21,312 nt of DNA from a virus. Shown one piece after another: positions 1-21,312 of this stretch. A program made the position numbers and the translations under genes. The notes beneath the pieces are model-generated. The model did no database searches. It saw nothing but the letters and a program-made list of their open reading frames with translations, and had not been told where the DNA came from. Location of the stretch: the UHGV virus genome UHGV-1468037. One strand, written 5' to 3'. The first letter of the stretch is position 1. Every line of letters starts with the position of its first letter.

Positions 1-82
1 CTTTATACGCAATACATTTACTTTCCTCTTTTGATGATCTTAAATGTCTTATTTTTCGTAATGTGTATAACAAGGAATAGTG

Positions 83-598: not shown

Positions 599-613
599 TA
601 ATCAGGAGGAGTC

Positions 614-1153: not shown

Positions 1154-1197
1154 GCGATGTCAGTAACTTCAAGCCTATGATTCGTGAGTATAAAAAA

Positions 1198-1224
1198 CCC
1201 TCTGTAGTAACAGAGGGTTTTGTT
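1198..1224 (+). terminator. Rho-independent terminator downstream of the yfgI-like gene
   Basis: Stem CCCTCTG / CAGAGGG with a 6-nt loop, followed by TTTTGTT. An A-run precedes it, so it could act in both directions. Confidence 0.7.
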
Positions 1225-1253
1225 CATTCATAGTACAGGGTTCAAATCATTCC

Positions 1254-1290
1254 CACTCAATTATTTACGACAATCATAACCAATTGAGTG
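1254..1290. repeat. Inverted repeat in the host/prophage junction region
   Basis: 9-bp arms CACTCAATT (1254-1262) and AATTGAGTG (1282-1290) separated by 19 bp, in the non-coding gap between the yfgI terminator and the Rz stop. Possible att-associated or recombinase-binding element; function unknown. Confidence 0.3.
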
Positions 1291-1854: not shown

Positions 1855-2480
1855 ACCGCCAGCACCTTACTGGCAGTGATGTATCGCGCGCGCCGGTCAT
1901 CAATGCCGTTCCGGCCACCATTGATAAGCAGAGTTACACGTGCAATATCTCCGGTATACTTCATGCAACCTTTGCTGGAGAAGAACCACGCCGCGCTACG
2001 AGCCGCGTATTCGTCCTGCGCCAACAGTTCAGGATTCTCCAGCAGGTCAACTTTCAGACCGTTTCCACAGTCACGATAGTTATTCAAACCGGTAATCTGG
2101 ATAAGCCCGCGCCCACGGTAATTCCAGCCATCACCAGGGGCATTGTTCCCCATGCGTTTGCTGTACACCAGATTTGCGATCGCGCGCTGGCGCTCGAGTG
2201 GCAATGGTGGTTCACCAGCACGGCGACCAAGTGCATTAGCCTGCCCCTGAGTGAGACGCCCAGCCCGAACGAAGTTAGCCAATCCGGTTACGCTGTAGTT
2301 GAAATTTTCCTGCAACCGGGTGAAGCCTCCAGACTCATGCCCGACCTGAGCAATAAACATTGCCTGATCTTCTGGTTTGCTGATACCAAACTCTTTCATC
2401 GCAGAAGTTATATGCGAGAACCAGCGAGCGGCCAGTTCCTCGCTGATACCAGCAGCTCGCTGGAATTGTTTAATCTCCAT
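1851..2480 (-). CDS. Endolysin, glycoside hydrolase family 19 (chitinase class I-like)
   Basis: 209 aa. Motifs typical of GH19 phage endolysins ([36 protein letters not shown]). Flanked by membrane-protein genes and Rz/Rz1. Confidence 0.8.
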
Positions 2481-2778
2481 GTTTAGACCTCGTTATTTTG
2501 AAAATCTGAACTACGTTACCGCGCGTTTTAATGACTGCAGCAAGCATGACAGCGTTGATAATGACCTCAGATAAATCCACAACCATTGGCGTGCGTAACC
2601 AGATTGCATAAGCGACACGAACTGGAATGCTGGCCGCAGCAACAATCAGGAAATAAGCAAGCCACCCACCCCATCGCCTGTGTTGAGAACCGTTTCTCCG
2701 AAATGTGGCAACTCGAACTGCTATACCGGCGCAAATAACCGCATTGGTGATAAGCAAAAAAAGCTCATGAGTTACCAT
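2470..2778 (-). CDS. Small membrane protein of lysis cassette (holin or antiholin candidate)
   Basis: 102 aa with 2-3 hydrophobic helices. Overlaps the endolysin start and the upstream membrane-protein gene. Confidence 0.55.
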
Positions 2779-3178
2779 CGTCTTTTCTCCCCGGAATTAA
2801 CTCGCGTGGATTATCGGAACGGTGATAGAGCCAGATCCCAATTCGCACAGCGACGATTGCTGACACAAATGCACCGGCAGAGAAAACAATCCCTTTCTCG
2901 AAAGAATCCTGTGTGATTGTAGGGATCAGGCTGGCTATGCCGATAAGAATTGATGCTGCTGGTTTGTAGAATAGAAGTCCGCAGAGAAAGCTAAGCATCG
3001 ACAAGAGCACGCGACGACGAATGGGATACTCTACCGCAGAGGTAACAAAAATCACCGCCCCAGCCAAAGACCCCAAAGCAACCTCAGGAGGAACTCCTGC
3101 TATCACTGCCGCCAAAGAACTCATGCTAAGCCACTGATTTAAAGTTTCACTGGTTAGTTGAGCTGACATGTTTTCCAC
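2765..3178 (-). CDS. Multi-TM membrane protein of lysis cassette (holin candidate)
   Basis: 137 aa with about 4 predicted TM segments. First gene of the lysis cluster, downstream of an AT-rich intergenic region. Confidence 0.55.
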   Translation of the reverse strand: MENMSAQLTSETLNQWLSMSSLAAVIAGVPPEVALGSLAGAVIFVTSAVEYPIRRRVLLSMLSFLCGLLFYKPAASILIGIASLIPTITQDSFEKGIVFSAGAFVSAIVAVRIGIWLYHRSDNPRELIPGRKDDGNS

Positions 3179-3535
3179 CGTTTATATGCATAACTACCTC
3201 CTGAACAGTAAAGCATTACGCATGATAAACCATTTATGGTTTTTTGTTACCCAATATTACCAATCCAATTCGCGATGGTCAAAACATATCCACAGCGGTA
3301 AGTTTGAGTGTTTTCATTTCCAAAACTTTATACAATAATATATGCAGTCTGTTATTTTTACGCACAATAAAAACACGATACCAGCTATTTCGCCATAAAT
3401 ACAATTTCCTTTAATGCTGCCAACAGTGCCTGCAAAACATATAACAGAACACATAAATAACAGGCATAATATAGATTTAATAATCTAAGTGCATATAAAT
3501 ATCATTTAAGAAGTTAAGAGCATTATTATAATAAC

Positions 3536-6551: not shown

Positions 6552-6654
6552 GTTAAATCTCCAGATAGTCGCAGCACCCGTTGCGCCGCATATCCGGTTA
6601 TTCTATTACCTGAAAAACCACATATGGATAGAAATACTGTGAATATGAATAGAT

Positions 6655-6671
6655 ATTACCTTTCGGGTAAT
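6655..6671. promoter_or_regulatory. Dyad motif copy 1 (ATTACC TTTCG GGTAAT)
   Basis: Perfect inverted half-sites TTACC/GGTAA with 5-bp spacer; one of four copies in the island; 76 bp upstream of the 85 aa gene. Confidence 0.5.
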
Positions 6672-6707
6672 TTGCAAAACGTGCTGGATAGCAAACAAAT
6701 TATTTGC

Positions 6708-6727
6708 TACTGTATAAATATACAGTT
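6708..6727. promoter_or_regulatory. LexA box (SOS operator)
   Basis: TACTGTATAAATATACAGTT: perfect CTGT-N8-ACAG with an AT-only spacer; about 20 bp upstream of the 85 aa gene start codon (6747). Confidence 0.75.
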
Positions 6728-6746
6728 ATTGCATGGAGAAGATAAG

Positions 6747-7004
6747 ATGCAGCAGTATCACTATCCACTGGAAGACGGATTTACCGAAAGGATTCACACG
6801 CCGGGAGGCGTCAGGTCACTGGTGGAGGGATCGCACTTGATGAAATTACTCCGGGATCTCGATAAGGATGGATTTAATGTCGATGGCCCACTTGCCGAAC
6901 TGACTGCACTGATTAACTACGTCACCAGCTCACAGATGTCTATGCGGGATCTGCAAACACATCTCGACTATTGTGCCGAACAATTACGAAAACAAACCCG
7001 GTAA
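6747..7004 (+). CDS. Small antirepressor-like protein; standalone paralog of the C-terminal domain of the downstream Ant-like protein
   Basis: 85 aa from ATG 6747 (GGAGA RBS). The upstream part of ORF 6624..7004 is rejected because it contains the LexA box and dyad site. Aligns by eye with the Ant-like C-terminus (LM.LL..L..DG..V.G..AELT ... RD.QTH..Y). Confidence 0.65.
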   Translation: MQQYHYPLEDGFTERIHTPGGVRSLVEGSHLMKLLRDLDKDGFNVDGPLAELTALINYVTSSQMSMRDLQTHLDYCAEQLRKQTR

Positions 7005-7010
7005 ATTTAA

Positions 7011-7028
7011 AGGCCGCAAGAGCGGCCT
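7011..7028. terminator. Bidirectional terminator between convergent genes
   Basis: Stem AGGCCGC / GCGGCCT with loop AAGA, T-rich on the plus side and A-rich before. Overlaps the stop codon of the minus-strand 242 aa gene. Confidence 0.55.
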
Positions 7029-7755
7029 ATCGTTTCGCTTTGTGCTCATCCCAGCACGTTTTGCACCATGCCATTAAGCCGTCCGCATTTTGATTATTAG
7101 GGTAAAAGCTGGTTCGTTTTCTGCGGACATTACAAATTGGGCACCACTTCATATGGCGTGTATTCTTTGGGCCATCGAGACACCTTGCACACCATTTAGT
7201 CAATCCATCTGGATTTTTTGACGATTTCCTGAATTTTTCATATGGAAGGTTTATTCTGCATCGCAAGCACTGCTTGCTACCACTTGAAACTCTGTTAGCT
7301 GATTCTTCTTTTGGCAGCGATACAGAAGGTATTCTTGCTGGCTCTGATATTGCCTGAGGTGCTTTTTTAGATGACTGAGACGATATGTCATCACCAGGGA
7401 ATCTTCCATGATATGCCGGACGCGTTGACACTCCAGGTGGAATCTCAGCTGTAAACGGCTTTGGCTGAATCAGTTGCCTCTCTTTTGCTAACTCCTGCTG
7501 TTTATAATATGTCTGGATTACCGCACTATCATAAGCAGGAGGTGCGGAAATATTAGGCGCATTACCTCCAGTTTTTTGAAACTGAGTAGAGGTGTGTTCT
7601 ATCACCTGTGTACGATTAATCGTTATCTCCCCATCTTCGGTCTTTATCGTTTTGTTATGATTAACGACCGTACGATCAGAGATCTTAGTCTTGTTCTGGT
7701 TGATAACGTAAATAATCACCGCAACCACACCAACAACTATCCAGAAAACTTCCAT
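7027..7755 (-). CDS. Membrane-anchored protein with two C-terminal zinc-ribbon (CxxC-N19/20-WCxxC) motifs; function unknown
   Basis: 242 aa. N-terminal TM helix (VFWIVVGVVAVIIYVI) followed by basic residues. Low-complexity linker. Two repeats: CLRC...WCARC and CPIC...WCKTC, in a basic context. GAGGA RBS. Divergent from the ant-like gene. Confidence 0.7.
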   Translation of the reverse strand: MEVFWIVVGVVAVIIYVINQNKTKISDRTVVNHNKTIKTEDGEITINRTQVIEHTSTQFQKTGGNAPNISAPPAYDSAVIQTYYKQQELAKERQLIQPKPFTAEIPPGVSTRPAYHGRFPGDDISSQSSKKAPQAISEPARIPSVSLPKEESANRVSSGSKQCLRCRINLPYEKFRKSSKNPDGLTKWCARCLDGPKNTRHMKWCPICNVRRKRTSFYPNNQNADGLMAWCKTCWDEHKAKR

Positions 7756-7774
7756 TGCTTTTCCTCACAATAAC

Positions 7775-7791
7775 ATTACCTTAAAGGTAAT
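7775..7791. promoter_or_regulatory. Dyad motif copy 2 (ATTACC TTAAA GGTAAT)
   Basis: Perfect 17-bp palindrome in the 5' UTR of the 242 aa gene, about 20 nt from its start codon, and at the far end of the ant-like leader. Confidence 0.5.
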
Positions 7792-7867
7792 ATCTTGCTT
7801 TCAGGTGATCAAGCGTTAAACGCAATCAACCAAATACGGTTGATTTTAATGTTTCTTCGCGCTTATC

Positions 7868-7884
7868 ATTACCTTTACGGTAAA
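7868..7884. promoter_or_regulatory. Dyad motif copy 3 (ATTACC TTTAC GGTAAA)
   Basis: Same TTACC-N5-GGTAA architecture, in the divergent intergenic region between the 242 aa gene and the ant-like gene. Confidence 0.45.
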
Positions 7885-7918
7885 TTTACATTGCACTCCT
7901 CTTGTGCCATAGTAATCG

Positions 7919-8049
7919 GGCACTGGCAAAATCCAGTGCCGGGATTGGCGTCCCGGATTACTACAGAGGCACATATGCCGCATAAGCGGTTTTTTTATGT
8001 GTAAAGCGCACCTATTCTATGGTGGGCTGTGTGGGGGCACCGAAAGGTG
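7919..8049 (+). promoter_or_regulatory. Structured leader upstream of ant-like gene (multiple hairpins including a terminator-like hairpin plus T7 run)
   Basis: Hairpins GGCACTGG/CCAGTGCC (7919-7940) and CCGGGA/TCCCGG (7939-7956) overlap and are mutually exclusive. CCGC-ATAA-GCGG followed by TTTTTTT (7978-7996). GCACC-GAAA-GGTGC (8037-8049). Confidence 0.4.
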
Positions 8050-8149
8050 CGCCGGGTCCTTTGTAGCCGGTTACGCCAACCCTGCACAGTTCACCACCAA
8101 CCGATTGGCGTCGGTAGTGGTGATTAACCTAACTACAAAGGTGATCACT

Positions 8150-8836
8150 ATGACTGCTAACGTAACCCCATCTGTTTTTCATTTTGAATCAGAAGCAACC
8201 ATTCGAGCCATTGTTATTGATGGAAATCCTTGGTTTGTTGCCAAAGACGTTATTAAAGCTCTTCAACTGACAAACCCCACTATGTCAATAAAATCTCTTG
8301 ATGATGATGAAAGGGCTAAATTTAACTTAGGCCGTCAAGGCGAAACCAATATTATCAACGAGTCAGGCCTCTACACACTGATCCTCCGCTGCCGCGACGC
8401 AGTGACACCAGGCACTATCCCCTACCGCTTTCGCAAATGGGTTACAGGTGAGGTTCTTCCTCAGATCCGCCGCACCGGAAGCTACATTAAAAACTCGCTC
8501 CCGCAGGAAGAGCGCATAAAGATGGTTGCCGACCAGGTAGCCAACGCCACGGCGTCAGCAGTAATGCAGGCGATGAAGATAGAGAACAAAACCTACAGTG
8601 CCCCACTGAAGCCAGGCTACCGCAGTCTGATTCATTCGCCGTCGGGTGTTCTCGGCCTGACGGAGAACTCATTGCTGATGAATCTGCTGAATCAGTTGCA
8701 GGACGACGGGCATGATGTATCGGGCGCGGCGGCGGAACTGACCACCATGTTCTGCTACATCGTCGGTGTGAGCAAATGCCTGCGTGATATCCAGACGCAC
8801 GCGGAGTACATCAACGACAAGGCAGGGTTCTTCTGA
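8150..8836 (+). CDS. Antirepressor-like protein with N-terminal BRO-N domain and C-terminal antirepressor-type domain
   Basis: 228 aa from ATG 8150 (AAGG 8 nt upstream). N-terminus matches the BRO-N pattern (IDGNPWFVAKDV...INESGLYTLIL...FRKWVTGEVLPQIRRTGSY). The longer ORF from 7997 would include the hairpin leader and lacks an RBS. Confidence 0.75.
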   Translation: MTANVTPSVFHFESEATIRAIVIDGNPWFVAKDVIKALQLTNPTMSIKSLDDDERAKFNLGRQGETNIINESGLYTLILRCRDAVTPGTIPYRFRKWVTGEVLPQIRRTGSYIKNSLPQEERIKMVADQVANATASAVMQAMKIENKTYSAPLKPGYRSLIHSPSGVLGLTENSLLMNLLNQLQDDGHDVSGAAAELTTMFCYIVGVSKCLRDIQTHAEYINDKAGFF

Positions 8837-8845
8837 CAGAACGGC

Positions 8846-8868
8846 GGCACAGGGATGTGCCTTTAAAT
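8846..8868 (+). terminator. Weak terminator-like hairpin after ant-like gene
   Basis: GGCACA-GGGA-TGTGCC followed by TTTAAATAATT. The T-run is short, so termination is probably partial. Confidence 0.3.
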
Positions 8869-8908
8869 AATTCTGTACAGATTGCAGACTGTGGGTGAAT
8901 AGCGTACT

Positions 8909-8925
8909 ATTACCTTAAAGGTAAA
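8909..8925. promoter_or_regulatory. Dyad motif copy 4 (ATTACC TTAAA GGTAAA)
   Basis: Core identical to copy 2. Abuts the Shine-Dalgarno AAGGAGG of the 55 aa gene. Confidence 0.5.
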
Positions 8926-8936
8926 GGAGGCGCGAT

Positions 8937-9104
8937 ATGACAGCGTTGAAAAATCGTACTCAGCACAATGAACAAGCCAAGCAATGCTGGGATGTCATTG
9001 GAAAAGTTATGCTTGGCCGCGCAAGCAAAGAGCGCGACAAGGATATGGTTTACCAGACAGGAACATCTTTCAGCGACTTCAAGGCGGCATTTCGCTCCAA
9101 ATAG
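8937..9104 (+). CDS. Small basic protein (55 aa), unknown function
   Basis: Not in the ORF track (<60 aa). ATG 8937 is preceded by a consensus SD AAGGAGG with 6-nt spacing. Translated by hand: MTALKNRTQHNEQAKQCWDVIGKVMLGRASKERDKDMVYQTGTSFSDFKAAFRSK. TAG stop at 9102-9104. Confidence 0.55.
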   Translation: MTALKNRTQHNEQAKQCWDVIGKVMLGRASKERDKDMVYQTGTSFSDFKAAFRSK

Positions 9105-9124
9105 AAGCACATTAGGAGTTTGTC

Positions 9125-9565
9125 TTGAAGTTTAACATTAGAATATCTAATAGTTTTCTAAATGGGGAAAGCAACACCCCTTTCGCTGTAGACGGACCTT
9201 TCCTTACTGACGATGAAATAAAAATCATACAAAGGTTTTTAGAAGATGTTGCCAATGGAAGGGCGCTTGTTGGAAAAAACAAGCCATCGTGGGTTGATGA
9301 TAACCATGATAAAATTCCCGGCTCAGACAATTATGAGCAAGAGAATTATTGGCATTATCATTGTGGGCCAACATGGTATCCAAACACATTTAAGAATTAT
9401 ACCATTAACTTAAATTTCAACCCTGGCGGAATGCATTCTAATGAATGCATTCATTATGCAAAAAATGATAATGAAATTGTCGTTGTTGGATTTTCAAGAG
9501 AACACATACCTTTCCTTTCATCAGATGGAAACGACAATCCGCTTTTTTATGATGAAGAAGAATAG
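9125..9565 (+). CDS. Hypothetical protein (146 aa) with acidic C-terminus, unknown function
   Basis: TTG start with AGGAG 6 nt upstream; 20 nt after the stop of the 55 aa gene, so probably an operon. Strongly AT-rich codon usage. No signal peptide. Followed by a strong terminator. Confidence 0.6.
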   Translation: MKFNIRISNSFLNGESNTPFAVDGPFLTDDEIKIIQRFLEDVANGRALVGKNKPSWVDDNHDKIPGSDNYEQENYWHYHCGPTWYPNTFKNYTINLNFNPGGMHSNECIHYAKNDNEIVVVGFSREHIPFLSSDGNDNPLFYDEEE

Positions 9566-9588
9566 CCCGCGGCGCGGGCTTTTTTGTG
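9564..9588 (+). terminator. Rho-independent terminator after the 146 aa gene
   Basis: Stem AGCCCGC / GCGGGCT with a 3-nt loop, followed by TTTTT. Confidence 0.75.
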
Positions 9589-9625
9589 TCTGCGGATTCC
9601 CACCCAGGCGGCGGTGGCATTCGTT

Positions 9626-9650
9626 AAAAACAAGGCCGCGAAAGCGGCCT
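9626..9650 (-). terminator. Rho-independent terminator after the 283 aa minus-strand gene
   Basis: Stem AGGCCGC / GCGGCCT with loop GAAA; the plus-strand A-run (9626-9630) gives a T-run on the minus strand. Same stem sequence as the hairpin at 7011-7028. Confidence 0.6.
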
Positions 9651-9656
9651 GTTTGA

Positions 9657-10508
9657 TCACTGTGCAGTTTTCGCTGATCGATTTTCAGCTCTAAATTCAA
9701 GAACCGTTTCAATATTTCTTTCCTTCAGCATATCAATAACATTTTTATTCATTTGACTATCACTGGTTAATAACTGGTAAACGTTGCTTCTCTCTTTATC
9801 AGAGTTTTCTTTAACAGCTGCTTTGCATGCCAAATGCTTATTGAAATTTTCTACATCGCTAGTACAGGAATTTACGGCTGCTGATGAAATATCAGACGCT
9901 GAAGAAACACCGTCATCCAAACGTTTTATAGCATTTTCTATACATGAGTTAAGGGAATAAACGACAACTGAGCGATACCCTTCAGACGCACACCATTCTA
10001 AATTTCTTGAAGGATCGAGTGGTTTTACTTCGCTGGATTGAATTAACTTGTCAAAAACTGACTTATATTCAATCTGTTTTTTATCTATAGCCCATACTTC
10101 AGTAGCTGATTTATAATTCCCCGTATGCCTATTAACATCAAATCCATGTTTTATAAGCAAATCTGCCCATGAAAGATTTATTGATTCATTGTTATGAGGC
10201 CATTTTCCTGTCAGAACCGCCCCCATAGACCCCATATATCCGCCATATGATGGTATAGCACCATGGCTCAGTAACTTCTCTGCAACCACAGGGCAATTAA
10301 TTACATAAGAGGCGTAAAGCCCATTCCATAAAGCCCCTCTATAGTAATCGCCACGATTAGGTTCTTTTAAGTCGATAGCCTTTGATAATTGTTCGCACGT
10401 TTTGCATGCATCAAAGTTATCCTTATTGCATTGCAATGAACTGGCAGCTGTAGGATTTACAGAGACTATTGAAAGCACTATGCCAAAAAACAAATTTATT
10501 TTTTTCAT
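9657..10508 (-). CDS. Secreted cysteine-rich protein (283 aa), unknown function; accessory (moron) gene
   Basis: Sec-type signal peptide MKKINLFFGIVLSIVSVNPTAAS. Many Cys in the mature part. AT-rich codon usage unlike the neighbouring virion genes. Start codon 1 nt after the stop of the 1129 aa gene, so likely translationally coupled. Confidence 0.7.
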   Translation of the reverse strand: MKKINLFFGIVLSIVSVNPTAASSLQCNKDNFDACKTCEQLSKAIDLKEPNRGDYYRGALWNGLYASYVINCPVVAEKLLSHGAIPSYGGYMGSMGAVLTGKWPHNNESINLSWADLLIKHGFDVNRHTGNYKSATEVWAIDKKQIEYKSVFDKLIQSSEVKPLDPSRNLEWCASEGYRSVVVYSLNSCIENAIKRLDDGVSSASDISSAAVNSCTSDVENFNKHLACKAAVKENSDKERSNVYQLLTSDSQMNKNVIDMLKERNIETVLEFRAENRSAKTAQ

Positions 10509-10509
10509 C

Positions 10510-13500
10510 CTATTTCATCTGCTCTTCAACTTTATTTAGTAATGGTGATATCGCCCACAGATTCTGAAAAGGTAGCATTTTACGGACAGCGTGGGTTTGC
10601 TGGCTGTCAAATTCTCCGTTAAGTACACCATTTGCAACCGTCGCGGCATCACCGCCAAGATCAAAGGTAGGACCAAGTAAAGCACCAATAGCATTACGAC
10701 TCTGAAACCTTGATACCGGAGGCGCACCAAACATCGCGCCAAGACCAAACCTACCGCCGCTTATGTTCTCAACGGTATTCAGCGGCTCAGAGAGCCAGCC
10801 AAGCATTCCGCCCCGGTCGATCCCCTCTTTCACAAGGTTATTCCAGCTGTAGTCGATATCGCGACCGCTTAACTTCTGTTTCATCATATAGACCATTGAG
10901 CCAAGCGCAATCGTGCCAAGCGCACCAAGATAGAATGCAGCATCGCCCTGCTGGATACCAGATACCAGCACCCTGTTATGCTGTGCGAAGATAAACGTTT
11001 TGAACTGCGTGATCATCTTCCAGCCTTCTTTACTAAAAAACAGCGGTGTATCACCTACGCCAGGCGTTACAATCACTGAGTCTACATCTTTCAGCACTGC
11101 AGACTGGAAAATCTCTCTAGCGAAACGGTCATCCCACAGATGACTATGCCCGGTTAACAGCCCGTCCATATCCTCTCCGTGCTTCCCGAATTGCTCCCCG
11201 ATTCGGCGCAGAACATCTTCATTGATGCCGACCTGTGCCATCTTCCGCATTTCACTTTTGGAGAGCGTGCCACCAGCAGAAACTTGGCGAGCCGCGTCAA
11301 GTATCCTCGACTGCACTATCATCCCAGACCATGATTTAAGTGCGCTGTTCCACTGATTCATCAGCGTCCAGTTACCGAATTTCTGCGTCATCCAGTTCAG
11401 ACCTCGCTCAGCGGCGCTTCTCCGGCTATAGGGGTCAGTAAGATCCGCTATAGCCTTTGTACGCGTAGACAGGACATAATCAAGCCCAACTGCCATTTCT
11501 CGCAAATCCCTGGTTGCAATTTTCACTGAGTCCATATTTTTAAGCATGCTTACCATTGGTCCGAGAGATTTTCTCAGGCCATGCTGCATCATCGGTCGCA
11601 TCAGATCAGTTGCAGCGGAGACAGTCATTCCACCAAGCAAACGGAGGAAGTTAATATTCCTAGCAACTCGCCCGGCACGAACAAAGAAACTGCGTGGATC
11701 TTGAGGTGCACCGTAAGTACCAAGCAGTCGATCACGCATAGCCGTAATATCCCTAATATCAGCCTCCCGTTGCTTCTCAAGAACTGCACGTCGTTTAGGT
11801 GTTTTAGCCTCTTTTATTAGCCGGGTATATTCCTCACTAACCTGACGGATTTGCTCCCCCATATCTTTACGGCCAAACTGCGCAGTCAGCTCAATTTCTG
11901 GTGCCACCTGCCGGAGATAACTTTCCATGATGTAGTTAACATCTGATTCAAGAAAATCTTCTATACGCTCATCAGGAATAAGCAGCGTTCTGCTTTTAGT
12001 GAAACCAGCCCGACCAACGAGTCTCTCTGGGATAATATCGGCTGGTACAAGCCCGGAAGGTGCGCCTATTATTTTATTCACGATCTCGTCAGCAGCGTCC
12101 TCTGCTTCCTCTCGGGATAGAGGCTCCATCTGCTTCAGTGCTCGCTCGCGGCTTGCATTCAGCCTTGTGGTTGAATTTGCCCGTTTTTGCAGTCGGCGAA
12201 GCTCAGAACGATATTTCCGTGGATTATCCAGCAACTCCATATGGCGCTGATAGACAGGAAGCTCACTCTTTGCCTGCGCTATATCATCAAGGCGTGTTTT
12301 AAGGTCAGAGCTTTCTTTCATCATTCTTGCCTGAAGTTTTTCTGATGAAGTCTCGGCCAACTCTTTTTCTATTCTTGTAAGACGCGCCTGTGTGTCAGTC
12401 TCCTGAGATATAAGCTTATTTCGTTTATCCAGTTCTTCCATGAGTAGAATTTTTTTACCAGACCATTTCTCCGCTTCAGCGATTTCACTAGCGAGAGCAT
12501 CAGCGCGCGGTGCTGATTCCTCTGCAGTTTTTAGCAATGAATTTATCTTTTCAATTCGCTGACCTGCTTTGTCAGCACCTTTGGCACTAATCCCTTGTAT
12601 CCAGTTGGCAATTCGCCCTCTGAATTCAGTGCGGTCGGAAAGTATCTTATCGAACTTATAAATGCGGGGAAGATAACTCTTCGCCGTCACGACATCGATA
12701 TCCTCAGGAAGGATCCCCAATTCCTGCATACGGGCTTTTGTGGTCTCAAAAATGGGGCGGATTCTGGCGGCTGCTTGTGAAACCTCAGGAATATCACTCT
12801 GATCACCACGGCGCATAGCCATGCCAACAGCTTCATTGAAATCAATAAAGTTCATCCTCTTCACGCCGCGGGCGCTGACAGATTTGCTGTACTGCTGGTA
12901 AGCATCACGAGTAGCTTCCATCTGCTTATAAAGCATGGCGTCGTATTGCTTAATCTTAGTCTCGACTGCCGTAAACGTAGCCAACCCCTCATCATTTTTG
13001 GCGAAGAAATAGTTATTTTCGGCAAGCTGCTGGTTAATCTGACGGGAGACAAGAGATGGTGATTGCGCCAAGCGGCCAGCAGGAGTGACACTCAACGTTT
13101 TGTTAGCAAGTCCAAGTCCAGCGAGCTGTTCCTGATCGAGTGTGGTATTGAAAACCTGAGCTGCACCAATGCTTTGAGGAGAATCCATACCTCGCAAATG
13201 ATTACCTACTGAGTTAACCACTGCCTCGCGCGCGCTAGGTCCAGCAAGTAGCTGTGCACCAGCACCAAGGATCCCACCAACGAGAGCATCAACAACAACG
13301 TTCGATACGCTCTCCATCGGTGAGCGAGCTTCCTGAGTGGCCTGTAATGCGGCTTCTGATACTCCCCCACCAGCAGCATTCGCCAGGGCAAAACGCCCTG
13401 CCGTCTCAGCAATACTTCCTCCACGCGCTACCGCCCCTACAGGGATGAACATTGCAGCCACATTAACCGGGTCTATCATTCCCATTGCTAAGCTTGAAAT

Positions 13501-13899
13501 AGTACCAGCACCACCCATTTCAGATAGATATTCTCTATCTGTTCTTTGCTTATCGATTCGATGTTTAATTGCCATTGTTTCTTCATGCGAACCGGAGTTG
13601 ATAAACGAATCTGCAAAATCTTCATAGCCTTTAATATCTGCTGCATCGTTATCAAATGGGTTATATCCTTCAACCCTGTCAAACTGACTGAAAGGAGCAC
13701 TGGCAATAAAGCTACCCAGCGTGTTATCTATACGAAATGCTGCTTGTCTAGACCTTTGAACGCGTTGATCACTGGTAAATGGGTTCACAGCAGAAAGCAA
13801 AGAAGGTGTTTCCATATAGAAATTACTGTCATCAGGTGCTGCTATTTGCTGAATATCCTCGCCAAGCAACTCTTTAGGATCCTGTTCATATATCGGCAT
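10510..13899 (-). CDS. Large internal virion/ejection protein (T7 gp16-position analog)
   Basis: 1129 aa. Last and largest of four consecutive overlapping genes following the tail-tube genes. Gly/Ala-rich and coiled-coil segments. No recognisable enzymatic motif seen by eye. Confidence 0.6.
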   Translation of the reverse strand: MPIYEQDPKELLGEDIQQIAAPDDSNFYMETPSLLSAVNPFTSDQRVQRSRQAAFRIDNTLGSFIASAPFSQFDRVEGYNPFDNDAADIKGYEDFADSFINSGSHEETMAIKHRIDKQRTDREYLSEMGGAGTISSLAMGMIDPVNVAAMFIPVGAVARGGSIAETAGRFALANAAGGGVSEAALQATQEARSPMESVSNVVVDALVGGILGAGAQLLAGPSAREAVVNSVGNHLRGMDSPQSIGAAQVFNTTLDQEQLAGLGLANKTLSVTPAGRLAQSPSLVSRQINQQLAENNYFFAKNDEGLATFTAVETKIKQYDAMLYKQMEATRDAYQQYSKSVSARGVKRMNFIDFNEAVGMAMRRGDQSDIPEVSQAAARIRPIFETTKARMQELGILPEDIDVVTAKSYLPRIYKFDKILSDRTEFRGRIANWIQGISAKGADKAGQRIEKINSLLKTAEESAPRADALASEIAEAEKWSGKKILLMEELDKRNKLISQETDTQARLTRIEKELAETSSEKLQARMMKESSDLKTRLDDIAQAKSELPVYQRHMELLDNPRKYRSELRRLQKRANSTTRLNASRERALKQMEPLSREEAEDAADEIVNKIIGAPSGLVPADIIPERLVGRAGFTKSRTLLIPDERIEDFLESDVNYIMESYLRQVAPEIELTAQFGRKDMGEQIRQVSEEYTRLIKEAKTPKRRAVLEKQREADIRDITAMRDRLLGTYGAPQDPRSFFVRAGRVARNINFLRLLGGMTVSAATDLMRPMMQHGLRKSLGPMVSMLKNMDSVKIATRDLREMAVGLDYVLSTRTKAIADLTDPYSRRSAAERGLNWMTQKFGNWTLMNQWNSALKSWSGMIVQSRILDAARQVSAGGTLSKSEMRKMAQVGINEDVLRRIGEQFGKHGEDMDGLLTGHSHLWDDRFAREIFQSAVLKDVDSVIVTPGVGDTPLFFSKEGWKMITQFKTFIFAQHNRVLVSGIQQGDAAFYLGALGTIALGSMVYMMKQKLSGRDIDYSWNNLVKEGIDRGGMLGWLSEPLNTVENISGGRFGLGAMFGAPPVSRFQSRNAIGALLGPTFDLGGDAATVANGVLNGEFDSQQTHAVRKMLPFQNLWAISPLLNKVEEQMK

Positions 13900-16646
13900 T
13901 ATTTGCCCCCTGCGTATATATTGCTCGGAAGGTAATTGGCTGAACCATAACCGAATGGTTTGGTCAGATCTGGAGGAGTATATCCATCTTTATTGCTGAA
14001 CTGCGGCAGCGGATTGCCTTCTCTCCGCACTCTAGCCTCATCAACACGCTGTTGCTGGAACTGAATGGTTTGCCTGTACATTGGAGATGTCAGCTGATCC
14101 GGCTTGAAACGAACAGGGAGACCATTTTCTCCAATATAATTTCTCGGTTCTATCGCTCCGTTTGCGTCAGGCTGTAAAACCATAACAGCATAACTCCTAT
14201 CCCTTGCCGTAAGGCCATCAGAAACAAGTATTAAGTCCGTATCACTGCGAGGACCGCCAAAGGATTTTGATTTAAGCTCGCGTTTTTCCTGCTCCCACTG
14301 CCCCTGTATCCAGTTACCAGCACCATTATTTACTCCGTACAATGCCTCAGGTGCATACTTCATAACCTCTGCTTTGCCATTAACTGTAGAAACTCCCCAG
14401 GTGGTTCTGATCATGGCATTGGTCATTTTCTCAGCCTGTTCTGCATCGCCACCTGTCTGTACAAAGTTAGCATCGTAAATTGTCTGGTAATCTCGCTGAT
14501 AGGCCGCATTTGATTTTCCTGGATCGGTAATATCCGGAGACCACGAACCAAAGGAAGTCAGACTGCTGGCGTTATTTTGTGCAGCAGTTGCCCTCGCCGC
14601 GACATATTTTTTGTCTCGCATGGCAGTGGAAAGCATCTGTTTCATTCGGTCATCCTGTTGGAACACCTGGCTGTAAGCCATATCAACAGCCTTATCCTCC
14701 GGCACGCCAGCGCGGGAATAATCGTAAACCTTGCCGTAAAATGCCATCGTACTTTTATCAAGTGTTGCCGCTGCCGCCGGATTATTATCGAATAACTGAC
14801 CGTAGAATTTTGCCATCGGGACAACCAGCGCAGGATCTCTTGATGTTGCTCCACTGTTAAGCATTGTTTTAACCTGAGTTGGTATCATGCCGCTTTTAGT
14901 TGTGACGGTGACCAGTGTATTGATGCTCTGCGGATCAGATATGGAAAACGAAGGCGCGATATCCTGCGCGAAATAACGGTCTACCGCTGCCTGATTGTTT
15001 TTGTCGTTAGGGTCCAGCGGGAAGTTATTTTGCATTGAAGACACGAACCTGTTTCTTCCCTGCTGAATCTCCCACTCCCTATCCATCTCTTTAAATTTGG
15101 CCTGCATTTTCTCCCAGCGTTGCTGGTTAGCTGCAAATCCAAGAGCGTTTGGATCCTGTGGACGTAAACGTTCAAGAATGTCTTGTCGTCCTTCTGGAGT
15201 GAGGTCTTTAGCGGCACCAATGACACCTCCATATTGTATCTGCGCCTGCATATCCTTCCACTTCATAGCGCCAATGCGCGGACCATTGGCCCGGATAAAA
15301 TCGTCCTCAGAAGGTAACTTCTCAGGTTTCAATCCTTCATCAAGGGCTGAATATGCATCTTTAACTACGGTGCTAAGCTGGTCCGCATACTGCTGGCGGT
15401 ACTGATTTCTCAGCTCATTAGCCTGCCTCAATGCCTGTATTTGCATTTGAGGGCTCATAGCGTCAAATGCCGCATTGCCCGTATAACGCTTAGGTGAATC
15501 AAGGTTAGTTAGACCAAGGGCTGCCGAGATACCAGTTTCAAGCTGTTCGGTGCTATAAGGCATACTGCCATTTTCGTGTTTAATAATCCCAGCACATAAA
15601 GCAGCTAGTGTCTTTGGGTTAGAGATATCAAGCTGATCATTCTCCCCAACACCAAGCTCACTACACAATGCCCTAATATAAGCATCAGTATTATTACCAT
15701 CACTAGCCGGAGCATAGCGATTAACAATCTCGCTAACGGTGTCATAGCCTTGACGCTGGTAAGACAACATATTTTTACCCAACGCGCGGATTCCATGCTC
15801 AGGGGTAGCAAACGTTGCAAAACGTCCATCGCTACCGATCTGACCTTCCCACGGGTTAGATTTGCTCGCTTCAATATTGCCAGGGTTATTATTACGTAAA
15901 CCACGAGCATCCAATGAATTACCATGTGATATTGCACGACTCACACCATCAAGATCCCCTGGCTCTCCATTAACCTGAAGAAACTCGTTGTATTTTTGAG
16001 CGATATTTCCTATCCATGCTTGCTGCCCCATTTGTTCCTTGAGCTGAGTTTTCTGCTGAACACGCCACTCATCAGGAAGCCCATGCGCATCAGCGTATTG
16101 ATCAATAGATTCAAATCGCTGCTTGGCTAAATCGACAAATGCTTGGTTATCGCTATATAGCCCCGCAGACTGAGTGACAGCCAATGCATTTCCTGACAAA
16201 TACGTTTGATCTTGGAATTGCTGAAACTGCCCAACTTCATATCGACGTGCCTGATTGTAATAAGACTGCATAGACTGCTGGAGTTGAAAGGATAATTTAT
16301 TCCTTTCCTCACTTTCAGGAATTGAGCCTAATAATGCCTGAGCCCTTTCCTGCATATTTTTCATAACAGCGTCACTCTGACCAAGAGCGTTTTTACCCTG
16401 TTTAGAAATCAGCCCATTTTCAGGGTTGTTAATCTGGTCATCTGCAAATTGGTTAAATTGCAGTAACGCCTCCTGGGCCATAGCAACATTCGCTTTCTGC
16501 CTAGCTTCACCATATGCCACCGCATACTGATCTGCGACATTCGCCAGCACCTGACCTGCTTGAGGAACATCGAAGGTCTGAAAACCACCGGTTTGCACAC
16601 CACGACTTTGCACCTGGCGTCCGGATGTAGTAGGAACAACAGGCAT
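13899..16646 (-). CDS. Large internal virion/ejection protein (T7 gp15-position analog) with an embedded conserved motif block
   Basis: 915 aa. Start/stop overlaps with neighbours. Contains the block ...GLRNNNPGNIEASKSNPWEGQ...GRFATFATPEHGIRALGKNMLSYQRQGYDTVSEIVNRYAP..., which I recall as recurring in phage virion proteins, possibly a wall-acting domain. Confidence 0.6.
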   Translation of the reverse strand: MPVVPTTSGRQVQSRGVQTGGFQTFDVPQAGQVLANVADQYAVAYGEARQKANVAMAQEALLQFNQFADDQINNPENGLISKQGKNALGQSDAVMKNMQERAQALLGSIPESEERNKLSFQLQQSMQSYYNQARRYEVGQFQQFQDQTYLSGNALAVTQSAGLYSDNQAFVDLAKQRFESIDQYADAHGLPDEWRVQQKTQLKEQMGQQAWIGNIAQKYNEFLQVNGEPGDLDGVSRAISHGNSLDARGLRNNNPGNIEASKSNPWEGQIGSDGRFATFATPEHGIRALGKNMLSYQRQGYDTVSEIVNRYAPASDGNNTDAYIRALCSELGVGENDQLDISNPKTLAALCAGIIKHENGSMPYSTEQLETGISAALGLTNLDSPKRYTGNAAFDAMSPQMQIQALRQANELRNQYRQQYADQLSTVVKDAYSALDEGLKPEKLPSEDDFIRANGPRIGAMKWKDMQAQIQYGGVIGAAKDLTPEGRQDILERLRPQDPNALGFAANQQRWEKMQAKFKEMDREWEIQQGRNRFVSSMQNNFPLDPNDKNNQAAVDRYFAQDIAPSFSISDPQSINTLVTVTTKSGMIPTQVKTMLNSGATSRDPALVVPMAKFYGQLFDNNPAAAATLDKSTMAFYGKVYDYSRAGVPEDKAVDMAYSQVFQQDDRMKQMLSTAMRDKKYVAARATAAQNNASSLTSFGSWSPDITDPGKSNAAYQRDYQTIYDANFVQTGGDAEQAEKMTNAMIRTTWGVSTVNGKAEVMKYAPEALYGVNNGAGNWIQGQWEQEKRELKSKSFGGPRSDTDLILVSDGLTARDRSYAVMVLQPDANGAIEPRNYIGENGLPVRFKPDQLTSPMYRQTIQFQQQRVDEARVRREGNPLPQFSNKDGYTPPDLTKPFGYGSANYLPSNIYAGGK

Positions 16647-17224
16647 CAGTAACCTCCTATTTTGAATCTGGAGTCAGAATTCATAAAACCTGAGTTAGAT
16701 AACATTGGCGTCCCACCACTAGATGTACTTCCTTTAGAGAACGGACTCCACGTCCCACCAAACATCTGGTACGCACCGTATGCTTTTAGTGGTGCCGTTA
16801 ACAAAGTGCTGGTCATCGATGATTTAGCAGCCGACTGAGCAGCAGCCCCCTGTGCCTGAGCATTCATTCCCTGAACCTGATACCCATATGCCTCACGCTG
16901 AGCATTATTCACTGTCGTTAACGCATCAAGAGTGCCGAACTGAGCATTATCCGCAAAAACGTCAAGAGCTGTTCCGCTACTTAATTCCGCACCGGTAGCC
17001 CCCATAGTGGCCGCCGCAGTGCCTGAGCGTTGACGCATTTCACGACGACGCTGATCCGCTTCAATATTCCCACGATTGATTGAATCCTGTGCCTGAGCTT
17101 CAGCAATTTCAGCATTCCGATCAGCTACGGCTGACTGGTATTTTGCCTGCTTGCTCTGGCTGTACATTGACGCTGCTGTGGATGCCACTGTGACGGCAAC
17201 CAAAGCGATGGCTGGGTTACACAT
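16646..17224 (-). CDS. Internal virion protein B-like (T7 gp14-like)
   Basis: 192 aa. N-terminus MCNPAIALVAVTVASTAAS... then Ala/Gln-rich helical region, similar in pattern to T7 gp14 as I remember it (MCWAAAIPIAISGAQ...). Size and position match. Confidence 0.6.
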   Translation of the reverse strand: MCNPAIALVAVTVASTAASMYSQSKQAKYQSAVADRNAEIAEAQAQDSINRGNIEADQRRREMRQRSGTAAATMGATGAELSSGTALDVFADNAQFGTLDALTTVNNAQREAYGYQVQGMNAQAQGAAAQSAAKSSMTSTLLTAPLKAYGAYQMFGGTWSPFSKGSTSSGGTPMLSNSGFMNSDSRFKIGGY

Positions 17225-17688
17225 TATTTTCTCTCCATGTGAAATCTGTGGAAATTAAGACCAAGAGCACCATAAGGCGCGGCTTCTTCAAGCCTGAATC
17301 CAAGCCAGTGCAGCCATGCTTTGGCAACATGGTTTCGCTCGTCGACGTAGTTTTCCAGGCGCGGATAAACTGCCAGCATCTGCTGCAATACAGGTCGGCA
17401 GTGGCGAAGAAATGTCTTCTGATATTTTTCAATACGGCTGGTTCCGACCAGCCAGGGTGTACCATTGCCACCGATCATTGACGCCGGAGATACACCAAAC
17501 ATGGTTACCAGTTCTCCGTTCGCGAACCCTGACCAGGCCATAGTCGCAGTGCGAAGACCAACACGCAGCGCATCTTCGGTAGTCATCAGCGATACCGCAT
17601 ACAGTTCGTCAATATCAGCCTGACGAACATCCGGCAAAATCATCTGAAGATGCTCTTCGGTGGCGGGAATAATTCGAACATCGATCAT
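17224..17688 (-). CDS. Small virion protein (T7 gp13-position analog)
   Basis: 154 aa. Overlapping stop/start with flanking genes. Assigned by position and size only. Confidence 0.5.
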   Translation of the reverse strand: MIDVRIIPATEEHLQMILPDVRQADIDELYAVSLMTTEDALRVGLRTATMAWSGFANGELVTMFGVSPASMIGGNGTPWLVGTSRIEKYQKTFLRHCRPVLQQMLAVYPRLENYVDERNHVAKAWLHWLGFRLEEAAPYGALGLNFHRFHMERK

Positions 17689-20153
17689 CAGAATCCCCCA
17701 ACAGTAAGACGAGGAATAACGGCAAGAACAGACAGCGGCAACGGGTCAAGCTGACGGATTCTTACACGTCCGTTTTTGCCCCAGTTACTGTCCAGTTTCA
17801 CTTCTACTTTTCCGGTAGCGTCATCAACAGGATCATCGTAGAACTCGAATTCACGCTGTGGATATTCGTACCATTTACCGCCGGGCGTAGTCGCCCAGAT
17901 GCCACGACTGGCATTCACAACCAGAGTAACGGACGGGATCACCTGTTTTTTGTCCAGCAGCGTTTCCTGTCCGTTAATGTTGATATCCAGTGTTTCGAAT
18001 TCAGCAGTTATTGGCAGGCCGATGTGCACTACAGCCCCAGGTGATTCCAGCGTGACGGCACCTCCGGAAACCACTTTCTGTGGTTCCACGTTCGCATCAG
18101 AGAGAATGTTTACGGTCTGGCCTTCAAGATGAGACAGGCCTCCAAATGTCCGGCGCGCCATCTGCCAGTTCGTGGTGGCCACATTCCTGAGGGATGGCGG
18201 GACGTTCCTGTTAGCACGAACCACTACAGCGGTATTGCTGGTTACAGAAATAATGTCGCAACGTAATTCTTTTGACACTTCAGTATCAGGATCAGTTCCG
18301 GTATAAGGGAACTGTAGTTGCGCGCCGACATCACTACTGGTGAAGTACGCACCACCAGAAACACTGATTGTATATTCCGCACGGTAATCCCATTCACCAG
18401 AACCACCAGTGATGGTCATCGTTCTGTCAGACGTATTTCTTCCATCATAGCTAAGGCCAGAATCAACAAAGAAAGCATCTTCATCGCTGGTAAATAAACG
18501 GCTGGACAGTCGCTCTATGTATCTCACTGTTTGCCCGTTAACGGTTCGGTTAACGACGAAATACACCGCATCTTCATTGCCTTCGCTGATACTGCATGTG
18601 CTTTCATATTTTCCGGTACTGGATTGTGGTGCCCATGCAAAAACCTGCTGATCACGCAAATAGGTCATCACCAGTAATTTACCGTCATCACGAATGCAGA
18701 AGGCGCTGGAGTAAGGGACAATCGAGAAGCACCAGTCAACAATGCTGTGCTTCTGAAAAAGATGATTGGCAAGGATGGTCAGGTCGTTCCCCTGATAGCC
18801 GTCAACATCGAATGAGTAGGCCAGATCACGGACAACACTGCCTTTCTCCTGGACGAACAGAGCAATATTCGCCACGGCAATTGGTGGGACATTGCTCGAG
18901 CCATTTGATCCCTGAGAGCTGAATGCAAATGATGATGGGGTAAGCACTTTGTTCTGGTCGCCAGTGATGACGTACTCACCTCCGGAAGTCAGCGCCACCA
19001 GCGAACCAACATCAATCAGGTGACGGATCTCATTAACCTGACGCCCGGCATAGGTGTAGATAATTCTGTCGTCATCCTGCGTAGGATTGCTTTTGCCAAA
19101 ATCCTTATAATCCCCGGTACGGCTGGCCCAGATAGTCTGAGGGAACGCAGTCGATGCGGCGAAGTAAAGGCGTTGTTGATAATAAACAACAGTGCCAGGA
19201 TAACCGTTAATACTGTTCCAGGCATATTTAGCCCATTTATAGCTGGCATTATCCTCGCCAACTACCTGCGAAGGGATATAGGAAATCACCTCGGCAGTTG
19301 CAGTAGTTCCATTTGCAGCAGAGATACGGGCAATGCCAAAACCACTGTGCAGATACTCCCACTCAATGCCGGTATCATCATCACCGGATCCGCCCCAGCC
19401 ATCCCATGATGTGCCTTCTGTATGCGAAGGGCGCAAAGTGCCTGTTTTGCCTGCTGTAACGGCGCGATAGTAGTTACTGTCTGCACGGCGAATATCGCCA
19501 ATCGACGTACTCTTACTGGTTTCCCATACCGGCACAGAATCCACTGCAGGCTGTTCCAGATAGAACAATTTGCCTACCTGCTCCGCGCCAAAAATTGAGG
19601 CGCTTGCCGTTAACGTAATTGTCCCGGTGCTGGCGCTGGCATAAACCGTCACTGACTCGTCAATATTGATATCTTCAAATGGCCCGTTCTTCGTTACCAC
19701 ATCAACCAGTTGCCAGTTGTCATGCGCATAGCGGCGCAACTCTTTCGGCGGGTATGCCGGATGAACCAGCGTAAGCACGTCTGCGCTTTGCGTGAATTTA
19801 ATTCGGAACAGATCGGCTTCAGTATATGGCGTGGCAATTTCATAAATAACATTGCTGCTGTTCAGCACCAACGCACCATCTTTGATAACGCGCATGTACT
19901 GGTGTCCGAACTCCAGAGCATAAGTCTGAACCGTCGAGAACTGGAACGGGATCAGGCGGCATTTCCGATTTGGGTATTTGGCGGCACCGACAAAACGCGT
20001 ACCAGGTCGATTCTCAACGCCGCCATACTGCCGCACGATAAAGTTATCGCACTTGCGCAATGCCACCTGGTACTTCGCCATGTCGATACGACCGTACAAC
20101 GACGGTCCAATCTCACCACCGGCAAAGCTGGGCTGGATCCAACTGATAGCCAT
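17688..20153 (-). CDS. Tail tubular protein B-like (nozzle; T7 gp12-position analog)
   Basis: 821 aa. Directly follows the tail-tube A-like gene with an ATGA overlap. Size close to T7 gp12. Confidence 0.6.
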   Translation of the reverse strand: MAISWIQPSFAGGEIGPSLYGRIDMAKYQVALRKCDNFIVRQYGGVENRPGTRFVGAAKYPNRKCRLIPFQFSTVQTYALEFGHQYMRVIKDGALVLNSSNVIYEIATPYTEADLFRIKFTQSADVLTLVHPAYPPKELRRYAHDNWQLVDVVTKNGPFEDINIDESVTVYASASTGTITLTASASIFGAEQVGKLFYLEQPAVDSVPVWETSKSTSIGDIRRADSNYYRAVTAGKTGTLRPSHTEGTSWDGWGGSGDDDTGIEWEYLHSGFGIARISAANGTTATAEVISYIPSQVVGEDNASYKWAKYAWNSINGYPGTVVYYQQRLYFAASTAFPQTIWASRTGDYKDFGKSNPTQDDDRIIYTYAGRQVNEIRHLIDVGSLVALTSGGEYVITGDQNKVLTPSSFAFSSQGSNGSSNVPPIAVANIALFVQEKGSVVRDLAYSFDVDGYQGNDLTILANHLFQKHSIVDWCFSIVPYSSAFCIRDDGKLLVMTYLRDQQVFAWAPQSSTGKYESTCSISEGNEDAVYFVVNRTVNGQTVRYIERLSSRLFTSDEDAFFVDSGLSYDGRNTSDRTMTITGGSGEWDYRAEYTISVSGGAYFTSSDVGAQLQFPYTGTDPDTEVSKELRCDIISVTSNTAVVVRANRNVPPSLRNVATTNWQMARRTFGGLSHLEGQTVNILSDANVEPQKVVSGGAVTLESPGAVVHIGLPITAEFETLDININGQETLLDKKQVIPSVTLVVNASRGIWATTPGGKWYEYPQREFEFYDDPVDDATGKVEVKLDSNWGKNGRVRIRQLDPLPLSVLAVIPRLTVGGF

Positions 20154-20761
20154 CAGGACAACCTCGCAATGGTAAACTCGTCAACCGGTGGCTGTGGTTC
20201 CTGTGATTCATTCTGGCTATGCGAGCCAGCACTAAGAATCACGCGATTGTACATATTGAGGGCAAACGTACCGAGGTCTGCATTCCCAGTGAGCGCCATG
20301 TTAATAGCTGCCGCAAGACGCCAGGCCAACGCCTCCATAAAAATGGCATCAAACATGTTCACATCTGAAACGCGAGAGACATACTTGAGCCATGCCTGCG
20401 GCTGGTCTGTGTAGATCAACTTTCCTGTTCCGTTGGTGTCTGCACCAACTTCGTACTGAACGCGCATTGCTGCTGTTGGATTGCGTACACCAGGAAGCAT
20501 AATTTCAGTAATGCGCAGACAATCGGACGGGTACTGGTACGCATATTCCCAGTCAGGCGGTGGATTGCTCGTATCTGCAAGCGCCACGCGTTTGGTAGCA
20601 AAGTTCCAGTCAAAATCAGAAAGAACAGCATCACGGCAGGCCTCAAAGTGCAGCGAACATTCCCCCGCTTCCTTGCTGGCTTCCGTCAGGCTGTTAATAC
20701 TGCGGCTGTTGCCAATATTGGACAGCGCACGATTACAGATCTCTACTACAGAGGCCATCAC
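20153..20761 (-). CDS. Tail tubular protein A-like (gatekeeper/adaptor; T7 gp11-like)
   Basis: 202 aa. N-terminal region (ICNRALSNIGNSRSINSLTEAS...) has a pattern reminiscent of T7 gp11. Size and position match. Confidence 0.55.
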   Translation of the reverse strand: MMASVVEICNRALSNIGNSRSINSLTEASKEAGECSLHFEACRDAVLSDFDWNFATKRVALADTSNPPPDWEYAYQYPSDCLRITEIMLPGVRNPTAAMRVQYEVGADTNGTGKLIYTDQPQAWLKYVSRVSDVNMFDAIFMEALAWRLAAAINMALTGNADLGTFALNMYNRVILSAGSHSQNESQEPQPPVDEFTIARLS

Positions 20762-21081
20762 TCACCTCCGTTACCGTACAGAGTTTCAGCCGCTGATTTT
20801 TCTACATCCCTGGAAACAGGAGCGATCGCCATATCAGTGATCTGCAGATCGGCGCTGCGATTAACACCATCGTCAGTTTCTCTGGCAGACAGGCCTCGAA
20901 TAACAGCCTTTGCAGTTATCATCACTTCTGTTCCGACGCCCTGAGGTTGCGCCTTCAGCTTATTCAATGTGTCGTTATTAAGAGTGATGCACAGCTCCCA
21001 CGGGTATTCATCGCGAGTTCTGGTTTCTCCGCTCTCATCCTGGTAGCTGTCAGTGCCGGTTTTGAGGTTTACGAGTTCCAT
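20758..21081 (-). CDS. Small virion-module protein, unknown function
   Basis: ORF 20758..21087. I prefer ATG 21081-21079 (protein MELVNLKTG...) with AGGAG RBS 5 nt upstream over the GTG at 21087. Stop overlaps the start of the tail-tube A-like gene. Confidence 0.6.
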   Translation of the reverse strand: MELVNLKTGTDSYQDESGETRTRDEYPWELCITLNNDTLNKLKAQPQGVGTEVMITAKAVIRGLSARETDDGVNRSADLQITDMAIAPVSRDVEKSAAETLYGNGGE

Positions 21082-21092
21082 ATACACTCCTG

Positions 21093-21116
21093 CAATAAAG
21101 GGGCCGAAGCCCCTTG
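21093..21116 (-). terminator. Terminator-like hairpin downstream of truncated gene
   Basis: Stem AAGGGGC / GCCCCTT with loop CGAA; on the minus strand it is followed by CTTTATTG. Confidence 0.45.
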
Positions 21117-21131
21117 TCGGATTCGCGAGGC

Positions 21132-21264
21132 TTACACGCCCAGTTCTTTACGCTTATCTGCGATCTTCTCTCGGAGCGTTTCGGCTTTAGCGTTATGGTG
21201 TGGCTTCTCGTTAAAGAGCAATTCGTACTCTTCACGGAGCTTATCCAGTTCACCATCATCTGAC
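21132..21264 (-). CDS. 5'-truncated CDS (C-terminal 43 codons) cut by the contig/adapter boundary
   Basis: Open frame with no start, translating by hand to ...SDDGELDKLREEYELLFNEKPHHNAKAETLREKIADKRKELGV with TAA stop at 21134-21132. The ORF-track 69 aa ORF 21050..21259 is in a different frame and is rejected. Confidence 0.5.
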
Positions 21265-21312
21265 CTGTCTCTTATACACATCTCCGAGCCCACGAGACAG
21301 GCAGAAATCTCG
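21265..21312. other. Illumina Nextera transposase adapter plus 8-nt index (sequencing artifact, not genomic)
   Basis: Exact CTGTCTCTTATACACATCT + CCGAGCCCACGAGAC, then AGGCAGAA (index-like) and ATCTCG (start of the P7 flank). Confidence 0.9.

Follow-up and report, generated by a model that had tools for sequence, protein, structure and literature searches.

Under the Nextera library design, a Read 1 that is longer than its insert reports the insert, the Tn5 mosaic end (ME), the i7-side tag, the i7 index and the P7 flow-cell sequence, in that order. For Nextera and Nextera XT libraries the i7 read-through adapter can be written CTGTCTCTTATACACATCT-CCGAGCCCACGAGAC-i7-ATCTCGTATGCCGTCTTCTGCTTG, and the 34-mer formed by its first two segments is named in PMC6460022, together with two other Nextera strings, among those to be stripped from reads. 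Both 3' variants, that of the i7 side and that of the i5 side, are given there as strings for removal. Natural Tn5 (IS50) likewise has 19-bp transposase-binding ends beginning CTG.CTCTT, the outside end (OE) and the inside end (IE). A different kind of reference is provided by the phiV10/epsilon15-like phages, in which phrog_590 (WP_000012377.1) is a small protein gene located between the genes for the Bbp16-family cement and the gp10 staple.

The window considered here is the whole stretch of 21,312 nucleotides that was analysed, and its last 48 nucleotides follow an interrupted phrog_590 gene. In bases, order and orientation they are the same as the i7 read-through adapter and, like it, they point outward at a contig end. 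The one difference from a full Nextera i7 adapter is that P7 stops after 6 of its 24 nucleotides, where read and contig end, with the remaining 18 lying beyond the contig. The tail is a technical artefact of a familiar kind rather than anything biological. Almost certainly, it is an Illumina Nextera (Tn5 tagmentation) adapter that entered the contig by untrimmed read-through of a short insert. Table 1 presents an overview of the features in the window.

Table 1. Coordinates of host, prophage and adapter features in the 21,312-nt window
Feature	Position	Strand	Remarks
E. coli chromosome	1-1261		prophage-free genomes align through 1261 only, then guaA
yfgH	80-598		host DNA
yfgI	614-1153		host DNA
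Right arm of phiV10/epsilon15-like (Uetakevirus) prophage	1262-21264		natural DNA
DUF2514 protein	1372-1854	-
GH19 endolysin	1851-2480	-
Holins	about 2470-3180	-
Tailspike, 991 aa	3576-6551	-
Variable region	about 6600-9650	mixed
BRO-N protein, within the variable region	7997-8836	+
Large internal virion and tail proteins	9657-20153	-
Tail protein, phrog_394	20153-20761	-
gp10 capsid staple protein	20758-21081	-	PF21628, E = 1e-50
3' fragment of prophage gene, phrog_590, function unknown	21132-21264	-	genuine; 111 aa when complete
Chimeric partial gene call, 59 aa	21132-21311	-	public record, ENA ERZ654312 NODE_80
Mechanical ORF, 53 aa	21132-21293	-	GTG start at 21293 inside the adapter; same artefact as the 59-aa call
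Tn5 mosaic end (ME), 19 nt, CTGTCTCTTATACACATCT	21265-21283	+	synthetic; exact match at the junction with genomic DNA
Nextera i7-side tag (Read 2 primer-site complement), 15 nt, CCGAGCCCACGAGAC	21284-21298	+	exact match
i7 index AGGCAGAA, 8 nt, Nextera N703	21299-21306	+	bioRxiv 10.1101/332346; PMC7589761 Table A2
ATCTCG, first 6 nt of the P7 flow-cell sequence complement ATCTCGTATGCCGTCTTCTGCTTG	21307-21312	+	exact prefix

Composition of the terminal 48 nucleotides

The contig end reads ...ccagttcaccatcatctgac / CTGTCTCTTATACACATCT CCGAGCCCACGAGAC AGGCAGAA ATCTCG, where the slash marks the step from 21264 to 21265. The initial annotation had described these last 48 nucleotides as the Tn5 mosaic end and i7 adapter followed by an 8-nt index and ATCTCG; when compared segment by segment with the Nextera i7-side adapter, they are identical to it at 48 of 48 bases, and the index proves to be N703. 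The tag directly after the ME is that of the i7 side, CCGAGCCCACGAGAC, and not that of the i5 side, GACGCTGCCGACGA. The assignment of AGGCAGAA to N703 follows bioRxiv 10.1101/332346 and Table A2 of PMC7589761, the latter printing the P7 primer strand as CAAGCAGAAGACGGCATACGAGAT followed by TTCTGCCT for N703. Since the reverse complement of that string is AGGCAGAA-ATCTCGTATGCCGTCTTCTGCTTG, the final ATCTCG of the window represents the first six nucleotides of P7.

Within the window the 19-mer of the ME is present as a single copy when both strands are searched with up to three mismatches, and the complete 48-mer is likewise found once only. The same tolerance of up to three mismatches revealed no further copy of the adapter and none at the left end of the contig, which aligns with natural E. 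coli sequence from base 1.

A perfect 8-nt inverted repeat, CCTGTCTC and GAGACAGG, is present at 21264-21271 and 21294-21301. It is composed of the start of the ME pairing with the end of the tag (GAGAC) and the first bases of N703, plus one genomic base. The repeat is a by-product of adapter design and is biologically meaningless.

Break of homology at the junction

The last 1,000 nucleotides of the window find prophage matches in 519 complete E. coli genomes, and every match listed covers query positions 1-952, equivalent to 20313-21264 of the window, and ends there. Over that interval the two best matches are 100% identical. The same stop at 21264 is seen against phages phiV10, TL-2011b and their relatives, as well as in a search with the whole window. 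Aligned pairwise, the window and NZ_CP122448.1 agree in each of the 165 columns up to 21264 and are unrelated from 21265 onward. Past the junction the natural sequence of NZ_CP122448.1 reads on as ACATCGTTGATGATTTTGG..., with ...ACATCGTTGATGATTTTGGTGC... in its continuation.

A search of 5,426 complete E. coli genomes (20,395 records) at an E-value limit of 10 returned no match to the 48-mer. The 39-nt junction of genome and adapter has no exact match among the IMG/VR viral contigs and GTDB representative genomes searched, so that the contig belongs to neither collection. The 48-nt tail is not part of the organism; it is synthetic, as had been proposed from the letters of the window alone.

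Origin of the tail and alternative explanations

The window is an entire SPAdes contig, ENA ERZ654312 NODE_80_length_21312_cov_4.723526. It was found by an exact-sequence look-up of the 59-aa edge protein, which returned a single record with the gene at its extreme end. Because the window is the whole contig, the adapter sits at the true contig end; it lies on the plus strand, at the 3' terminus, facing outward. The k-mer coverage of the contig is low (4.7).

The tail was very probably acquired in a few steps. In one library molecule, Tn5 would have cut E. coli prophage DNA right after base 21264. The insert being shorter than the read, Read 1 would have run on into the ME, the i7-side tag, the N703 index and six nucleotides of P7. 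A SPAdes assembly built from reads that had escaped adapter trimming, at low coverage, would then have allowed one or more adapter-bearing reads to survive as a terminal extension of NODE_80. We infer the read-through, the absent trimming and low coverage as the reason that the tip was kept. No finding is in conflict with this account. The contig may stop where it does either because of the adapter itself or because coverage was too low to go further, with the adapter tip left unclipped.

A related explanation accepts the tail as an adapter and proposes that the contig would have ended at this point anyway, either at a break in the assembly graph, if the sample held several related Uetakevirus prophages or strains, or at a real deletion or rearrangement breakpoint in the prophage of this strain, with the tip merely appended. 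The capsid module is common to about 520 of the searched E. coli genomes at 95-99% identity, and some of them carry two copies; being so widely shared and sometimes doubled, it makes repeats or strain mixtures plausible, and the low k-mer coverage also fits. However, in those complete genomes that were inspected the gene carries on without a break to the Bbp16-family and major capsid genes, and it would take a coincidence for Tn5 to cut precisely at a biological breakpoint. In addition, a tip of this kind is normally retained by SPAdes only where no better-covered continuation is available. On balance this explanation is unlikely. Smaller still is the chance that the junction coincides with a real discontinuity, be it a deletion or rearrangement breakpoint of the prophage or a strain-variable boundary of the capsid module, which would make the truncation partly real.

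Another candidate is a genuine transposon, namely a Tn5/IS50 insertion or a laboratory mini-Tn5 or EZ-Tn5 insertion in the prophage gene, with the contig ending at the repeated transposon. The first 19 nucleotides of the tail are indeed a Tn5-type end, to which the OE is identical at 16 of 19 positions. Nevertheless, the end matches the engineered ME at 19 of 19 positions, as opposed to 16 for the OE and 15 for the IE. The ME and OE sequences are printed in PMC2566895. Compared with natural Tn5, then, the window has the engineered hyperactive ME and lacks the IS50 interior: the next 29 nucleotides are an Illumina tag, a catalogue index and P7, and neither IS50 nor cargo. Moreover, none of the 5,426 complete E. 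coli genomes carries the 48-mer. A real insertion is thus extremely improbable.

Lastly, a chance resemblance of genomic sequence to the adapter can be dismissed, since a fixed 48-mer is expected about 5e-25 times in 21,312 nt on both strands, none of 100 dinucleotide-preserving shuffles contained a match to the 19-mer or the 48-mer, and homologous genomes carry unrelated sequence at the positions of 21265-21312.

The interrupted phrog_590 gene

The initial annotation placed the contig end inside a phage gene at 21132-21264. The gene is real, although it belongs to a chromosomal prophage next to yfgH-yfgI and not to a free phage. What survives of it is the stop codon (21132-21134), residues 69-111 (SDDGELDKLREEYELLFNEKPHHNAKAETLREKIADKRKELGV) and, of codon 68, only the third base. 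Its translation, SDDGELDKL...KELGV*, agrees residue for residue with the C-terminus of WP_000012377.1 from NZ_CP122448.1. Against the phrog_590 profile, the 43 residues encoded in the window align to positions 69-111 of 111 (E = 7e-22), and the full-length homologue aligns to positions 1-111 (E = 3.5e-61). The N-terminal 68 residues are missing: of the 336 nt of the complete gene, stop codon included, the 203 nt at the start-codon end lie beyond the contig. In complete genomes the gene is uninterrupted and is preceded by genes for the Bbp16-family capsid cement, the major capsid protein, the protease and the portal.

With the adapter tail on the contig, gene calling yielded a partial protein whose N-terminus consists of 16 false residues. 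In this 59-aa call the residues EISACLVGSEMCIRDR are adapter-encoded, the last of them, R, coming from a chimeric codon that spans the junction. Any ORF reaching across 21265 had been called spurious in the initial annotation, which is right for the GTG start at 21293 and the adapter codons but too broad for the remainder. Such ORFs are chimeric and not wholly spurious, as their 3' 133 nt, or C-terminal 43 residues, are authentic coding sequence.

In the 50-nt gap between the phrog_590 stop and the gp10 start there is a G+C-rich hairpin, GGGGC-CGAA-GCCCC, at 21100-21113 of the window. On the coding (minus) strand it reads GGGGCTTCGGCCCC with a UUCG loop and is followed by TTTATT. Within the late operon it might act as a weak terminator or else serve to stabilise the RNA. 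A scan of 20700-21312 for promoter-like and terminator-like sites called none, and the hairpin itself was not called by the consensus terminator scan.

Prophage and host context

The sequence tcattcccactcaat at approximately 1248-1262 is the reverse complement of the guaA 3' end. Since the alignment with prophage-free genomes also ends at 1261, a Uetakevirus-like prophage is placed at the guaA 3' end, adjoining yfgI. The prophage DNA shares 96-100% identity with prophages of complete E. coli genomes; for the phages phiV10 and TL-2011b the value is 98%. The right arm comprises lysis genes, a tailspike, a BRO-N gene, internal virion proteins, tail genes and the gp10 capsid staple. The window as a whole is covered to at least 80% in only 7 of the 5,426 genomes, from which the receptor-binding and moron region emerges as the variable part of the prophage.

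The tailspike has marginal C-terminal matches to an endosialidase catalytic domain and to a Peptidase_S74 intramolecular chaperone domain, the latter with a score of 22.0 bits that equals the cut-off. When the variable ORFs of 6624-10508 were compared with Pfam and PADLOC, the BRO-N domain was the only match, and there were no matches to defence systems. Between the tailspike and the BRO-N gene lies a 242-aa ORF (7027-7755, minus strand), for which there was no Pfam match above the cut-off (a weak Stc1 match fell below it) and no PADLOC match. The surrounding region, 6950-7900, is absent from SBF22, the best match to the whole window; it is covered to at least 80% in 129 complete E. coli genomes, where the genes are annotated as hypothetical proteins.

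The same signature in other records

The constant 34-mer of ME and i7-side tag is present in at least 120 unrelated IMG/VR contigs, accompanied by other Nextera indices. When copies of the 34-mer were parsed, 128 of 129 lay within 60 nt of the end to which they point and one was internal (in contig L019); the 129 include the contig under study and four GenBank loci that had been cut to 40-nt flanks, for which the distance to the end is uninformative. The eight nucleotides after the 34-mer vary, with the catalogue indices CGTACTAG, GTAGAGGA, GGACTCCT, TAAGGCGA, TAGGCATG, AGGCAGAA and TCCTGAGC among them. Of the 95 copies with at least four nucleotides beyond the index, 91 go on with the exact start of the P7 complement.

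Among GenBank phage records, 43 contain the 48-mer or the 34-mer, and most copies are less than 100 nt from the end of the record. The hosts of these phages include Escherichia, Bacillus, Streptococcus, Listeria, Staphylococcus, Pseudomonas, Acinetobacter and Paenibacillus. Two of the records, LT985573.1 and LT985588.1, have the identical 48-mer with the identical N703 index in unrelated flanking genomes. With MH538296.1, LR597643.1 and the IMG/VR contigs, the window shares the 34-mer, an 8-nt index and P7 near the sequence end; most other contaminated records differ in carrying indices other than N703, again in unrelated flanking genomes. A constant block, a variable index and a second constant block at the ends of unrelated genomes are the mark of a library adapter and not of a biological element.

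The relevance of the tail is one of database hygiene only. Positions 21265-21312 are best masked and the gene at 21132-21264 annotated as a 5'-truncated fragment, and the 16 adapter residues of the public 59-aa protein are to be disregarded. As the counts above indicate, tails of this kind are common. Through them, unrelated partial proteins can come to share false peptides, and scans of contig ends can report false "conserved" motifs.

In several records the 34-mer is found deep inside the sequence: MK373781.1 at 146326-146360, MK327946.1 / NC_054919.1 at 76726-76759, MH973725.1 at 6673-6706, MT584805.1 at 107552-107585 and the IMG/VR contig L019 at 3701-3734. One internal copy falls in a coding sequence whose annotation is baseplate hub subunit and tail lysozyme. 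These internal copies suggest chimeric joins or misassemblies at those positions, rather than end tips.

Two further contigs, IMGVR_UViG_3300045988_001800 (L013; 5,104 nt) and IMGVR_UViG_3300045988_092106 (L070; 14,075 nt), have an outward Nextera adapter at both ends, with the same index on both parsed ends of the former. An adapter at each end of a contig gives rise to an artificial inverted terminal repeat, which completeness tools could mistake for genuine ITRs.
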